Origin: a virus | Taxonomy: Duplodnaviria > Heunggongvirae > Uroviricota > Caudoviricetes | Direction: 5' to 3' (one strand) | Length of the DNA stretch: 12,059 nucleotides | IMG/VR virus record: IMGVR_UViG_2541047758_000005 | Span: 1-12,059 of that record | Part shown: positions 5,569 through 12,059 of the stretch, in pieces | Layout: each line of letters opens with the position of its first letter | Position numbering within the stretch: position 1 is the first letter of the stretch | Notes under the pieces: generated by a model | Seen by the model: only the letters and a program-made list of their open reading frames with translations | Databases searched by the model: none | What the model was told of the DNA's origin: nothing | Made by a program: the position numbers and the translations under genes

Positions 5569-5862
5569 ATGAAAAAAATGCTACTCGCTACTGCGCTGGC
5601 CCTGCTTATTACAGGATGTGCTCAACAGACGTTTACTGTTCAAAACAAACAGACAGCAGTAGCACCAAAGGAAACCATCACCCATCATTTCTTCGTTTCT
5701 GGAATTGGGCAGAAGAAAACTGTCGATGCAGCCAAAATTTGTGGCGGCGCAGAAAATGTTGTTAAAACAGAAACCCAGCAAACATTCGTAAATGGATTGC
5801 TCGGTTTTATTACTTTAGGCATTTATACTCCGCTGGAAGCGCGTGTGTATTGCTCAAAATAA
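5569..5862 (+). CDS. bor: Bor outer-membrane lipoprotein (serum-resistance moron)
   Basis: 97-aa ORF MKKMLLATALALLITGCAQQTFTVQNKQ... with lipobox LITGC; matches lambda Bor as recalled; opposite strand to the lysis genes, as in lambda. Confidence 0.95.
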   Translation: MKKMLLATALALLITGCAQQTFTVQNKQTAVAPKETITHHFFVSGIGQKKTVDAAKICGGAENVVKTETQQTFVNGLLGFITLGIYTPLEARVYCSK

Positions 5863-5868
5863 TTGCAT

Positions 5869-5894
5869 GAGTTGCCCATCGATATGGTCAGCTC
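5869..5894. terminator. Hairpin between convergent bor and Rz (gagttgcccat cgat atggtcagctc), probable bidirectional terminator
   Basis: 11-bp arms with one G-U wobble and one mismatch, 4-nt loop; overlaps the Rz stop codon (5894-5896). Confidence 0.45.
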
Positions 5895-6355
5895 TATCTG
5901 CACTGCTCATTAATATACTTCTGGGTTCCTTCCAGTTGTTTTTGCATAGTGATCAGCCTCTCTCTGAGGGTGAAATAATCCCGTTCAGCGGTGTCTGCCA
6001 GTCGGGGGGAGGCTGCATTATCCACGCCGGAGGCCGTGGTGGCTTCACGCACTGACTGACAGACTGCTTTGATGTGCAACCGACGACGACCAGCGGCAAC
6101 ATCATCACGCAGAGCATCATTTTCAGCTTTCGCATCAGCTAACTCCTTCGTGTATTTTGCATCGAGCGCAGCAACATCACGCTGACGCATCTGCATGTCA
6201 GTAATTGCCGCGTTCGCTAGCTTCAGTTCTCTGGCATTTTTGTCGCGCTGGGCTTTGTAGGCGATTGCGTTATCACGGTAATGATTGACCGCCCATGACA
6301 GGCTGACGATGATGCAGATAATCAGAGCGGATATAATCGCGGTTACTCTGCTCAC
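5894..6355 (-). CDS. Rz: Spanin inner-membrane subunit Rz (i-spanin)
   Basis: Track ORF 5894..6367; body [60 protein letters not shown]... matches lambda Rz (153 aa); the homologous start here is GTG at 6353-6355, overlapping the R stop (GTGA). Confidence 0.92.
5953..6135 (-). CDS. Rz1: Spanin outer-membrane lipoprotein subunit Rz1 (o-spanin), embedded in +1 frame of Rz
   Basis: 60-aa [27 protein letters not shown]... with lipobox VVVGC and Pro-rich mature part; fully nested inside Rz as in lambda. Confidence 0.9.
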
Positions 6356-6849
6356 TGTTGCCCCCACAAACAGACTTCACGCTCAATCTCACGACGAGTC
6401 ATCAGGCCTTTCCATTGCTTACCGCCAGCGTATGTCCAGCGACGCAGCTGATCACATGCGCCTTTGATATCGCCCTGGTTTATTTTGCGAAGAAGCGTCG
6501 ATGTTCTAAAATTGCCAGCACCCACATTGTAAACGAATGAGTAAAGAGCGCCGCGCGTTGTTTCCGGTATATCGACTTTGATATACGGGTTAATTTGTCT
6601 GGCGACAGTGGCAAGGTCTTTATTCAAGAGTGCTTTGCATTCTGCTTTGGTATACGTTTTACCGAGCATGATGTCTTTTCCGGTGTGTCCGTGACATACA
6701 GTCCATACACCAACAATATCTTTGTATGGTATGTAGCTGACACCTTCCAGACCATCGTTACCACTTGGGCCAGTGATTAACACTGATGCTATAGCAATTG
6801 CTCCGCCACCAATAGCAGCAGCAACGGCTTTTCGTAATGATGGAGGCAT
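6352..6849 (-). CDS. R: SAR endolysin R (phage-21-type T4-lysozyme-family muramidase)
   Basis: 165-aa ORF; N-terminal Gly/Ala-rich signal-anchor-release segment [20 protein letters not shown] followed by lysozyme motif [25 protein letters not shown]; matches phage 21 R / DLP12 RrrD by recall, not lambda R transglycosylase. Confidence 0.92.
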
Positions 6850-7064
6850 TATTCACCTCTCGCAGCCTTGCGCTTATCTTCTTTAATCTTGAAATAAAGG
6901 TTTGTCAGGTACGTCAGCAGGCCAAATACCAGGCTACCCAGCACACCTATTGCTGCCCACTGTGAGGGAGTGACTTTATCGAGCAGCTGTAAAAACCAGT
7001 AACCGGCACTACCTGCTGAGGTGCCATAGGCGGCTCCAGTTGTTAACTTATCCATGAATTTCAT
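6849..7064 (-). CDS. S: Pinholin S (phage-21 S-type), 71 aa, dual-start motif
   Basis: Track ORF 6849..7109; preferred start is ATG at 7062-7064 with GAGGTG RBS, giving [28 protein letters not shown]...[36 protein letters not shown]; two TMDs; second ATG at codon 4 (M-K-F-M) as in S21 71/68; stop overlaps R start (TAATG). Confidence 0.9.
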
Positions 7065-7652
7065 AACCCCACCTCGCAGACAAAGCGGGTGTAAATTGAG
7101 GGAATACAACGTATCGCAAAAAAGCAGAAACGTAACTGACTCCGAGTCAGTGAATAACTCAGGTATTGAGTTATCAGCTAATATCGAGACTCAAAAAATG
7201 GAAAAACCAGCTCGACGGCGGGTTTAAGCTGTGTGACGAAGTAACCACTCTTAACAGCATAACCAATTTTTTACGTACGTAAACCACTGAATGATATTTA
7301 TGAGAATGCTACCGAGTGTTCAAAACATCACCACAAATACATAAGAAAACCTCAACAAATAACCAATAAATAATTTCCAGTGTTATTTTTAGCCGGTTTA
7401 AATTAAACAGACGAATTATAGAACCACCATAAATAACAGCCATTAATATAAATTAGCTAATAGATTTATTTTTGTTCAAATAAGAGCCATAAATAGGTTT
7501 CGATAGAAAAAGTTCAGATAAAAATAGAGATCTACTTCACAAATTAAATGAGAAACTAAAACTTACATCTTGAAATAATCACATTGATTAGATGAATATT
7601 TATCGCGCAGTGACATCATTTTTTAATAATAGTTCAAAAAAAAGGGCTCACG

Positions 7653-9664: not shown

Positions 9665-10134
9665 GATTACCTCCTTCGAGTATACAAAAGTACCCGACTC
9701 AAGTTGGTTAAGTTCCTAGAACGACATTTTAAGTCAACAACTTACCGCGCCATCTCTGCGCTCACACGTCCCACTACCTCAAAACATGTAAAGCCTTGCA
9801 AGCCATTGTGAGGCCTTATGTGTCTCAGTTTTGTCCCTCTTTTTTGTACCAAAAAACATAGCAATTGAGGATAAACCTCATGCTATTTTCGCTTATATGC
9901 CTCTAAAGGCATGGCGCTTAAATAGATAAAAACACCACAAAAGCATAAAAAACCACACAGTAAAACCGCAACATAAAACAATAACAGATAATTAAACCAA
10001 AAACAGATAGCGCATTGTGATAATCATTCAATACTAAACAAAATATAAACAGTGGAGCAATATGTAATTGACTCATTAAGTTAGATATAAAAAATACATA
10101 TTCAATCATTAAAACGATTGAATGGAGAACTTTT

Positions 10135-11088
10135 ATGCGGGCGAAACTTCTGGGAATAGTCCTGACAACCCCTATTGCGATCAGCTCTTTTGCTTCTACC
10201 GAGACTATATCGTTTACTCCTGACAACATAAATGCGGACATTAGTCTTGGAACTCTGAGCGGAAAAACAAAAGAGCGCGTTTATCTAGCTGAAGAAGGAG
10301 GCCGAAAAGTCAGTCAACTCGACTGGAAATTCAATAACGCTGCAATTATTAAAGGTGCAATTAATTGGGATTTGATGCCCCAGATATCTATTGGGGCTGC
10401 GGGCTGGACTACTCTCGGCAGCCGAGGTGGCAATATGGTCGATCAGGACTGGATGGATTCCAGTAACCCCGGAACCTGGACAGATGAAAGTAGGCACCCT
10501 GATACACAACTCAATTATGCCAACGAATTTGATCTGAATATCAAAGGCTGGCTCCTCAACGAACCCAATTACCGCCTGGGACTCATGGCCGGATATCAGG
10601 AAAGCCGTTATAGCTTTACAGCCAGAGGTGGTTCCTATATCTACAGTTCTGAGGAGGGATTCAGAGATGATATCGGCTCCTTCCCGAATGGAGAAAGAGC
10701 AATCGGCTACAAACAACGTTTTAAAATGCCCTACATTGGCTTGACTGGAAGTTATCGTTATGAAGATTTTGAGCTAGGTGGCACATTTAAATACAGCGGC
10801 TGGGTGGAAGCATCTGATAACGATGAGCACTATGACCCAGGAAAAAGAATCACTTATCGCAGTAAAGTCAAAGACCAAAATTACTATTCTGTTGCAGTCA
10901 ATGCAGGTTATTACGTAACACCTAACGCAAAAGTTTATGTTGAAGGCGCATGGAATCGGGTTACGAATAAAAAAGGTAATACTTCACTTTATGATCACAA
11001 TGATAACACTTCAGACTACAGCAAAAATGGTGCAGGCATAGAAAACTATAACTTCATCACTACTGCTGGTCTTAAGTACACCTTTTAA
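10135..11088 (+). CDS. ompT: Outer-membrane aspartyl protease OmpT (omptin), full length
   Basis: 317-aa ORF MRAKLLGIVLTTPIAISSFASTETISFTPDNINADISLGTLSGKTKERVYLAEEGGRKVSQLDWKF...TTAGLKYTF, near-identical to E. coli OmpT as recalled; GGAG RBS. Confidence 0.97.
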   Translation: MRAKLLGIVLTTPIAISSFASTETISFTPDNINADISLGTLSGKTKERVYLAEEGGRKVSQLDWKFNNAAIIKGAINWDLMPQISIGAAGWTTLGSRGGNMVDQDWMDSSNPGTWTDESRHPDTQLNYANEFDLNIKGWLLNEPNYRLGLMAGYQESRYSFTARGGSYIYSSEEGFRDDIGSFPNGERAIGYKQRFKMPYIGLTGSYRYEDFELGGTFKYSGWVEASDNDEHYDPGKRITYRSKVKDQNYYSVAVNAGYYVTPNAKVYVEGAWNRVTNKKGNTSLYDHNDNTSDYSKNGAGIENYNFITTAGLKYTF

Positions 11089-11107
11089 CGAAGTTAACCA
11101 GATTTTC

Positions 11108-11143
11108 TCCCCGGTGGTATTGTATAACCCCGGGGAATTTGTT
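11108..11143 (+). terminator. Candidate ompT terminator hairpin (tccccgg ... ccgggga, 15-nt loop) followed by aatttgttt
   Basis: 7-bp GC-rich inverted repeat 11108-11114 / 11130-11136, 20 nt after the ompT stop; loop is large, so confidence is modest. Confidence 0.4.
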
Positions 11144-11264
11144 TACAGTTACAAGTAGACAATATCCACTAATTTTGTAAGCATTTAACCTATGTCATAA
11201 CGTGTAATCTCTTACCGCAACACAAGACCTCAATATATTCAAATCTTATCTTTATTCCGATATT

Positions 11265-12059
11265 CAGAGACACAATGCGAAAAATAATTACTCATTTCAA
11301 AGTTGTTTTAACGTTACTTCTACCAGTAACCGTATCTGCCCAGCAGATACAGTGGCAATCCTGTATGGCCAGTCAATTCAACCACTGGTTTGGTGAGGAA
11401 AAACCGTCTCCTGACTTACTATGTGGTTATTTGTCTGTTCCATTAAAATATACAGACACAGGCGGAGATGCTTCTTATGAAAAAAAATCACAAGTCAAAC
11501 TAGCGTTGACAAAATTGCCGGCAAAAAGCAAGCATAAAGGAAGTATCCTGATAATAAGTGGTGGTCCCGGGTTACCAGGCATAAATCCTTATATTAACTT
11601 TGACTGGCCAGTCACAAATCTTCGTGAGTCATGGGATATTATTGGATTTGATCCTCGAGGCGTCGGACAGTCCACTCCGACAATAAACTGCCGGCAATCA
11701 GATACAGAGACTCAGGAAAACATAACCGAAAAGCAACAAGTATTAAATAAAATTAATGCCTGTATCCATAATACCGGAGCCGAAGTCATTCGCCATATCG
11801 GCTCTAACGAGGCTGTATACGATATTGATCGTATTAGGCAAGCCTTGGGGGATAAGCAACTGACAGCCGTGGCGTATTCGTATGGAACTCAAATTGCAGC
11901 CTTATATGCAGAACGTTTTCCCTACAACGTAAGATCTATCGTTCTTGATGGAGTCGTCGATATCGATGACCTGGAGGACAACTTCACATGGCAACTCAAA
12001 CAGGCACAGAGTTATCAGGAAACGTTTGATCGCTTTGCATCCTGGTGTGCGCGTACAAA
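11265..12059 (+). CDS. Secreted alpha/beta-hydrolase, S33 (prolyl/tripeptidyl aminopeptidase)-like; 5' part only, continues past window end
   Basis: Hand translation from ATG 11265: 265 codons with no stop to the window end (not in the ORF track because it has no stop); signal peptide MRKIITHFKVVLTLLLPVTVSA/QQ; oxyanion-hole-type motif ILIISGGPGLPG and nucleophile-elbow-type motif AYSYGTQ. Confidence 0.8.

Follow-up and report, generated by a model that had tools for sequence, protein, structure and literature searches.

DLP12, the cryptic prophage of Escherichia coli K-12, sits at argU and runs from intD through quuD-nmpC-essD-rrrD-rzpD-borD and on through nohD-tfaD-appY to ompT, the final gene before the attachment (att) repeat on the envY side. 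A review also puts ompT within DLP12 (PMC5723341), and in the K-12 RefSeq annotation the feature 'cryptic prophage DLP12' (564755..586056) includes ompT and ends before envY, so that the K-12 gene order given in an initial annotation of the DNA treated here, with ompT at the far end, was correct. That DNA is a stretch of 12,059 nucleotides from a tailed-phage record, IMG/VR IMGVR_UViG_2541047758_000005, and the whole of it is referred to below as the window. It would go with the argU integration site of DLP12 and its 47-bp att core, and shares with that prophage the block of Q, porin, S, R, Rz and bor together with ylcI, ybcW and ybcV. It differs in having a gene for a Hip1-like hydrolase where K-12 has appY, in an intact porin gene where nmpC is split by the insertion sequence IS5, in keeping terminase and cos, and in an ompT that is joined to the Q side of what appears to be a neighboring prophage copy and not to envY. 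In E. coli the canonical locus runs nfrA, ybcH, envY, the argU 3′ end repeated over 47 bp, ompT, then either the hydrolase gene or appY, tail-fiber genes, terminase, bor, lysis genes, porin, Q, early genes, intD and argU. The 47-bp argU copy separates envY from ompT in 13 chromosomal loci, and ompT is therefore inside the att repeats of the prophage.

The same cargo is found in a functional phage genome. Phage 2G7b (NC_049954, Nesevirus) has bor, porin, ompT and the hydrolase gene, and its map reads tail fiber, methyltransferase, tfa, hydrolase, ompT, the att core (28118-28164) and int, then Q, porin, S, R, Rz and bor, with lom present too. Its block of ompT, hydrolase and the P′ arm of the phage attachment site (attP) is 99.9% identical to window 9710-12059, and its cos and terminase (genes 1-2) are 98% identical to those of the window. 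In contrast, the phage has its whole early region, int and the attP core between Q and ompT where the window has scraps of ~370 bp, and its Q-to-bor block is just 92% identical to that of the window, which therefore represents a different allele. The match to window 9710-12059 is 99.7-99.9% in phages 2G7b, ev243, PhiR49_1, PhiR26_1, PhiR30_1 and Turner, and the sequenced temperate phages that have ompT and hydrolase were deposited with their propagation hosts named. What we take to be their source paper, on temperate coliphages of infant-gut E. coli, mentions an outer-membrane protease 'found twice' among temperate lambda phages, 2G7b and ev243 being unnamed there (PMC6969025). The cargo cluster itself is already known, as passenger genes of one lambda-like E. 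coli phage family.

How the cargo came to lie beside Q in the window has its nearest parallel in phage lambda. The classical att-ended deletions of lambda, such as b2, are Int-promoted and arise by secondary-site recombination, one endpoint being at the att crossover and the other elsewhere in the phage DNA, where the sequence is weakly similar. Our reading, to which we give a probability of about 0.7, is that the window is the seam between two DLP12-family prophages, of 2G7b-type lambda-like phages, lying head-to-tail at the argU locus, with the intervening DNA deleted. Copy A (window 1-9712) would be the late half of an old and heavily deleted prophage, with tail-fiber and portal scraps, terminase, cos, bor, lysis genes, porin, Q and early scraps, and copy B (window 9713-12059) the outer end of a second prophage, with the attP P′ arm and then the b-region passengers ompT and Hip1-like secreted serine hydrolase. 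A deletion with its right end exactly on the boundary between core and P′ arm would have removed the inter-prophage DNA, most likely by phage integrase recombining the attP-like site between the prophages with a secondary site in a gene for a 171-residue protein of copy A. ompT would then be next to Q because two prophages are joined head-to-tail with about 5 kb or more deleted at the joint, where the remainder of the early-left operon of A is lacking along with its integrase gene, the P arm and the 47-bp core. As the remnant-A lineage appears to have lost its own ompT, copy B would restore it. The case differs from the lambda deletions in that the event would be between two chromosomal prophages and by an integrase of the IntD type on a tRNA-derived core, the integrase being deduced from the position of the break.

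In window coordinates the features are:

980-1186, minus strand: head-tail joining gene W, from the list of open reading frames (ORFs)
1183-3108, minus strand: ORF for the terminase large subunit (GpA_ATPase Pfam label on identical genes)
3083-3628, minus strand: ORF for the terminase small subunit Nu1 (Phage_Nu1 Pfam label on identical genes)
3806-3817, minus strand: cosN, an exact copy of the 12-nt cohesive end of lambda, GGGCGGCGACCT
interleaved with the late region: ylcI and ybcV, plus strand, and ybcW, minus strand
5569-5862, plus strand: bor, antisense to the late operon
5894-7064, minus strand: lysis cassette, with Rz (5894-6367), embedded Rz1 (5953-6135), R lysozyme (6352-6849) and S holin (6849-7064)
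7653-8750, plus strand: porin gene of OmpC/NmpC/Lc type, between Q and S and antisense to both
8889-8906: terminator-like hairpin 3′ of the porin gene
8940-9323/9338, minus strand: late antiterminator gene Q, quuD type (Phage_antitermQ, E 9.8e-54)
9341-9437, minus strand: 3′ scrap of a DUF968 gene, and an old deletion joint
9449-9712, minus strand: last 264 bp (3′) of the 171-residue early-region gene of prophage A, cut at 9712 so that an ORF of 71 amino acids is left
9710-9712: seam AAG, shared by the truncated 171-residue gene and the final 3 nt of the 47-bp att core
9713-10134, plus strand: P′ arm of attP (predicted extent about 9713-9840) and the upstream/promoter region of ompT, copy B
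10135-11088, plus strand: ompT
11275-12059, plus strand: 5′ 785 nt (261 codons) of a 494-codon gene for an alpha/beta hydrolase of Hip1/TAP (S33-like) type, continuing past the window end
11965-12059: opening 95 nt of a ~2.16-kb repeat, the opposite end of which is window 1-95

Over window 1-9712 the DNA matches the DLP12-type remnant in strain AMSCJX02 (L003) at 99.98% identity, and the identity stops at 9712. Window 9710-12059 is 99.7% identical to a second reference locus, L001 12001-14350, comprising the envY-ompT intergenic region, ompT and hydrolase gene, and on alignment the two homologies overlap by AAG alone. When the flanks at the seam were compared in 15 loci, a 47-bp att core, AATGGCGCGCC...CGACTTAGAAG, was found directly to the left of the P′ arm in every reference locus and in phage 2G7b, and because the window has the interior of the 171-residue gene in that place, its break is exactly at the boundary of core and P′ arm. 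The 171-residue gene, intact at L003 12881-13396, ends on its side of the joint with ...GTTGGTTAAG; on the other side window 9713-10134 is 99.9% identical to 2G7b 28117-27696, which abuts the att core of that phage. The core/P′ boundary is the edge of the argU anticodon loop, and it is at the edge of that loop that tRNA-targeting tyrosine integrases usually exchange strands. The bounds of the DLP12 family, direct 47-bp repeats of the argU 3′ end and an IntD-type integrase gene by argU, are present at the reference loci; the window itself has 3 nt of the core next to the P′ arm and no integrase gene, and the argU end falls outside it.

The distance between Q and ompT, given initially as about 800 bp, measures 797-812 bp to the ompT ATG. 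Between them are the DUF968 scrap, the older deletion joint, the 3′ 264 bp of the 171-residue gene, and the P′ arm with the ompT upstream region. It had been stated that neither an integrase nor an att site lies in the interval; there is indeed no integrase, though the P′ arm is there (9713 to ~9840) with its core cut to AAG. Nor is there support for the supposition that nearness to Q ties ompT to the late region; the gene is a passenger of the other end of the phage, the b-region/attP end. The older deletion, of ~6.6 kb in remnant A, has a GGTATCC-type microhomology (7-8 nt) at about 9430-9437, 280 bp from the seam, with window 6043-9437 corresponding to L005 20216-16822 and window 9430-9712 to L005 10235-9953. 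It took the immunity, replication and nin genes (cI/cro, O/P-like, Dam, RusA, KilA-N and most of DUF968) and is common to AMSCJX02-type strains. Head and tail genes between portal and tfa are also deleted from remnant A.

None of 5,426 complete E. coli genomes has the joint, and an exact search with 36 nt across it gave nothing in genome_contigs, viral_contigs or metagenome_contigs. Look-up of an 83-residue ORF that spans it led to two independent Logan contigs, L020 (3 samples) and L021, from at least four sequencing runs and 100% identical over 7664-11994; an 89-residue ORF that also spans it is not on record. The 71-residue ORF was rejected as a marker specific for the joint, being a naturally occurring split form of the 171-residue gene, and its look-up did yield L008, a metagenome contig of 621 bp (ENA ERZ28656190 scaffold_102627) in which the 171-residue gene and the P′ arm are joined with one substitution. 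L008 is without the 9430 deletion on one side, and on the other it departs from the ompT upstream region past window 9838. All four combinations of the 9430-deletion and post-9838 markers occur.

What adjoins the window was approached through the truncated portal protein, look-up of which led to scaffold KE699876.1 of GCA_000457655.1 (L024). It is 100% identical to window 1-10983 and has a gap of 4,520 N (L024 10984-15503) beginning exactly at window position 1; the contig across the gap ends in the sequence of window 11965-12059, with a type VI secretion scar next to that sequence. In relatives of remnant A the same junction of scar and truncated hydrolase gene is seen at 11965, with neither ompT nor the 5′ part of the hydrolase gene. 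Because the gap-side contig and the window both end in 11965-12059, the source genome has two entries into the repeat that starts at 11965. That repeat, which consists of the 3′ part of the hydrolase gene, tfa′, methyltransferase and the 3′ end of tfa, is in two copies in the source genome. The Logan contig stops at 11994 (11965+29), as a k of 31 predicts, and the window has an overhang of 95 nt, as a K of 96 predicts, these being the values that we take to apply to Logan and to the ALLPATHS assemblies of the Broad, respectively. Intact ompT-bearing phages and prophages first depart from the window at 95/96. Contigs are unbranched through 9712 in Logan (K=31) and in the NCBI scaffold, and remnant A is single-copy because of this lack of branching. 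An order consistent with all this is cus, type VI secretion scar, truncated hydrolase gene, tfa′, methyltransferase, remnant A (the window), seam, P′ arm, ompT, hydrolase, tfa′, methyltransferase, and from there a second, phage-type tfa allele onward. The scar itself (~67 bp, ctatcggcgaacgggccgatcactcatgcaggaagcatagatcctttgagcggagtttct; L003 1298-1364 and the same stretch in L023-L032) precedes the truncated hydrolase gene at 11965 and occurs with either ybcH or a type VI secretion island (VgrG/DcrB/prePAAR) as left flank.

Arrangements of the kind from which such a seam could form occur in nature. Some match to the att region is found in all 5,426 complete E. coli genomes, and an uninterrupted chromosomal int-core-P′ (attP-like) site in 80 of them, so tandem DLP12-family prophages at argU are not rare. 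Strain E28 has prophage A through int, then core, ompT, hydrolase and tail genes, which is the precursor topology; as the direct precursor it was rejected, its prophage A having a different gene in the place of the 171-residue gene.

One competing idea, that ompT and the hydrolase gene are ordinary chromosomal genes up to which the prophage decayed, was one of the options in the initial annotation. Though the window has no integrase between Q and ompT, and ompT is very widespread (the identical OmpT protein is found in 26,196 blocks of the collection), the idea is scarcely credible: the pair is inside phage att repeats at every chromosomal locus examined, it is present in sequenced phages and at argW with another integrase, the hydrolase gene is in just 1,254 of the 5,426 complete genomes (23%), and what follows the break on its right is a phage P′ arm. 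In no genome examined did the pair have a core-genome context outside a prophage, or a conserved core context with the prophage elsewhere. It is also improbable, though less extremely so, that one remnant was simply duplicated in tandem, that the DNA is a 14-kb circle, or that the joint is an artefact of assembly. The relative orientations are a circular permutation of the canonical order, and with both window ends in one repeat a cycle of window, repeat and window is topologically possible. Against these, the unbranched contigs of two assemblers leave the remnant a single exit and a single copy, the scaffold ties the contig on the type VI secretion side to the window start, and the alleles of intact phages differ from the window exactly where the unique sequence of the contig starts (96); a 14-kb circle would in addition be without replication genes, lost in the 9430 deletion, and the joint turns up in 4 or more sequencing runs as well as in a metagenome. 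With no branching of contigs at 9712, simple tandem duplication was ruled out, and so was Campbell-type homologous insertion of a pre-deleted phage, which would duplicate the joint region.

Two further explanations share the two prophage copies and differ in what made the joint. One, which is possible and yet doubtful, has the seam come from a random illegitimate deletion at the AAG microhomology, with no part for integrase: just 3 nt are common at the joint, a plainly illegitimate deletion (7-8 nt microhomology) lies 280 bp away in the same remnant, and by eye the secondary site has no convincing core-like inverted repeat. On the other hand, the right breakpoint is the end of the 47-bp core to the nucleotide, where a random break within the ~420-bp ompT upstream region would fall in, by our estimate, about 1% of cases. 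The other, somewhat less likely still, is direct integration of phage B at a secondary attachment site within A's 171-residue gene, with no tandem intermediate. The form of the left joint fits, as host-side sequence runs as far as the overlap, where the P′ arm takes over; there is no k-mer path for an intact 171-residue gene in the source or in ERR1512399, as an interrupted gene would have it; and L008 may represent another such event at this nucleotide. Yet the primary site (argU, with the attL of remnant A) should have remained available, and the complete-attP tandem arrays of the 80 genomes offer ample starting material for deletion. Direct integration would also leave a reciprocal joint, the core followed by GATATAGCC..., of the form ...CCCACGACTTAGAAG|GATATAGCCTTCC....

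Several observations count against deletion by integrase between two tandem prophages, or against the tandem itself. The secondary site is weakly core-like, with about 9/20 positions around the joint matching by eye, and a 3-nt microhomology is also typical of illegitimate recombination. In L008 the flanks of the joint differ on either side, so that this contig reflects an independent event or else a chimera of the metagenome assembly. Copy B is deduced from the geometry of contig ends, not seen, with the ALLPATHS K presumed to be 96, and the scaffold gap of 4,520 N compares with ~1,970 bp predicted from related complete genomes, an excess possibly due to an insertion sequence (as in L027) or to a scaffolding estimate confused by the 2.16-kb repeat. 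Granted two prophages, the position of the break puts the involvement of integrase, whether in deletion or in direct insertion, at slightly better than even odds. That the 171-residue gene of DLP12-type prophages is a secondary attachment site used repeatedly by IntD-type integrases, with L008 a second independent event, is a speculative extension, and an unlikely one.

The status of ompT and the hydrolase gene as phage-associated cargo, one of the two initial proposals, is borne out by their presence within the att boundaries of DLP12-type prophages, in sequenced temperate phages, and also at argW with a different integrase. In this last case (L018 8235-20954, GCA_033746775.1) argW and a P4/IntS-type integrase gene are followed by ompT, hydrolase, methyltransferase, tfa, stf, lom and J; homology to the window begins at 9790, without an argU-type P′ arm, so that the same cargo goes with a different integration module. 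Cargo varies among related phages: Kati and PhiR68_2 have ompT only, K-12 has appY instead of the hydrolase gene, and remnants without ompT exist. Plasmid p111 (NZ_CP023367; L022 7117-9736) and about 60 more plasmids have a pair of omptin and alpha/beta-hydrolase genes, ~92% identical to the window pair over ~2 kb. In these IncF ColV-type plasmids (with the ompTp-type gene) the two-gene pair is in the same order as in the window, whereas the setting is one of conjugative carriers, between colicin V immunity and iroN among colicin and salmochelin genes, without a phage att arm. The omptin and hydrolase genes move as a unit on non-phage carriers as well.

All four genes for exported proteins in the window had been recognized correctly in the initial annotation, with some correction for the last. 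Bor proteins confer serum resistance, porins of the NmpC/Lc type are alternative general porins, and OmpT cleaves cationic peptides and proteins. Bor matches Pfam Lambda_Bor (PF06291) at E 1.4e-30 over profile positions 1-75 of 75; its translation starts with a lipoprotein signal, MKKMLLATALALLITGC, with lipobox LITGC, and homologous loci carry the annotation bor or borD. The porin is apparently intact, matching Porin_1 at E 1.8e-156 across 337/337 profile positions and the NCBIfam OmpC subfamily NF007841 with 527.8 bits (cut-off 484), and its location is that of nmpC in K-12 DLP12 and of the porin gene of phage 2G7b. On these matches it falls among the 16-strand, signal-peptide-bearing porins of the OmpC/OmpF/PhoE family. 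It has 365 residues here, while K-12 nmpC is interrupted by IS5 and the relatives L002 and L005 have frameshifts. OmpT matches Omptin (PF01278) at E 2.8e-130 with 433.9 bits and NF008222 with 708 bits (cut-off 537), and catalytic residues D83, D85, D210 and H212 (mature numbering) are all kept.

For the hydrolase gene the 5′ part is present and looks intact, and the true ATG is at 11275, not 11276 as first given. That part matches Abhydrolase_1 at E 6.5e-25, its N-terminus is signal-like (MRKIITHFKVVLTLLLPVTVSA) and its nucleophile motif, AYSYG, is at residues 200-204. A full-length homolog, L001 13566-15050, matches structures of Hip1/CaeA from Mycobacterium tuberculosis at E 4e-51 over residues 21-475, and full-length copies elsewhere bear a C-terminal Abhydrolase_4/TAP-like domain (PF08386), a region that is past the window end here. 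The likeness to M. tuberculosis Hip1, or carboxylesterase A (Rv2224c), is in a near full-length alignment, in the combination of Abhydrolase_1 with a TAP-like C-terminal domain, in a signal sequence and in a G/A-x-S-x-G nucleophile motif; the acid and histidine residues of the E. coli/phage protein fall past the window end. With 35.7 bits against a cut-off of 259.75, the protein does not reach the prolyl/tripeptidyl aminopeptidase equivalog TIGR01249, and on sequence it appears to be a relative within the family and no prolyl aminopeptidase equivalog. By homology it is probably a cell-envelope serine hydrolase or protease. A search for literature on the hydrolase adjoining ompTp found nothing specific.

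The rest of the window is as expected of a lambdoid late region. Its gene order fits the lambda-type late order, Q-(porin)-S-R-Rz-(bor)-cos-Nu1-A, within the stretch that is 99.98% identical to the annotated prophage of L003, and the late operon is assigned to the minus strand because the terminase genes (1183-3628) point that way. The lysis cassette is identified by Phage_lysis (Pfam, E 5.7e-54) and by the annotation rzpD/rrrD/essD in L003. The cosN sequence has 1 match in the window, with 0.04 expected, and the linear genome of phage 2G7b starts and stops precisely there (window 3817/3818). Window 1-983 consists of scraps: a tail-fiber assembly gene running off the window start, a tail-protein fragment and a 119-residue N-terminal fragment of the portal protein (624-983).

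The four cargo genes all run counter to the late/tail operon of the phage. GC content is 53-54% in the terminase genes, 0.42-0.44 in the cargo genes, 32-36% in their flanks and 0.41 over 9713-12059. Judged by opposite strand, by GC below that of structural genes and by dispensability among related phages, the four are likely to be morons. Two further patches, window 4500-5300 (the DUF1398 gene ybcV and its upstream region) and 7110-7652 (the 540-bp interval between holin and porin), are very AT-rich with 32% GC, as is typical for moron promoter regions that were acquired horizontally and are probably silenced by H-NS. A promoter scan of the window gave fewer hits than did shuffled sequence and was not used. 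By analogy with their families the four genes, with lom in intact relatives, may be regarded as an envelope-directed passenger set that would together remodel the envelope of the lysogen.

If the 171-residue gene is a repeatedly used secondary site, recombination at it, by phages coming in or by attP-like sites between prophages, would lock two prophages together and delete the resident integrase, and ompT and the Hip1-like hydrolase gene would be re-installed in this lineage after the loss of the original copy. On the reading of two tandem prophages, the seam would offer a clear case from nature of an att-ended deletion between them. More generally, ompT, often treated as the gene of a chromosomal housekeeping protease, is confirmed as a phage passenger, as is its hydrolase partner, and active lambda-like phages still carry the two, as do IncF plasmids. 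The keeping of the pair on both phage and plasmid carriers makes the hydrolase worth functional attention. The presence or absence of ompT can be reset by phage traffic, which is relevant to pathoadaptation in Shigella and enteroinvasive E. coli and to strains used for protein production.

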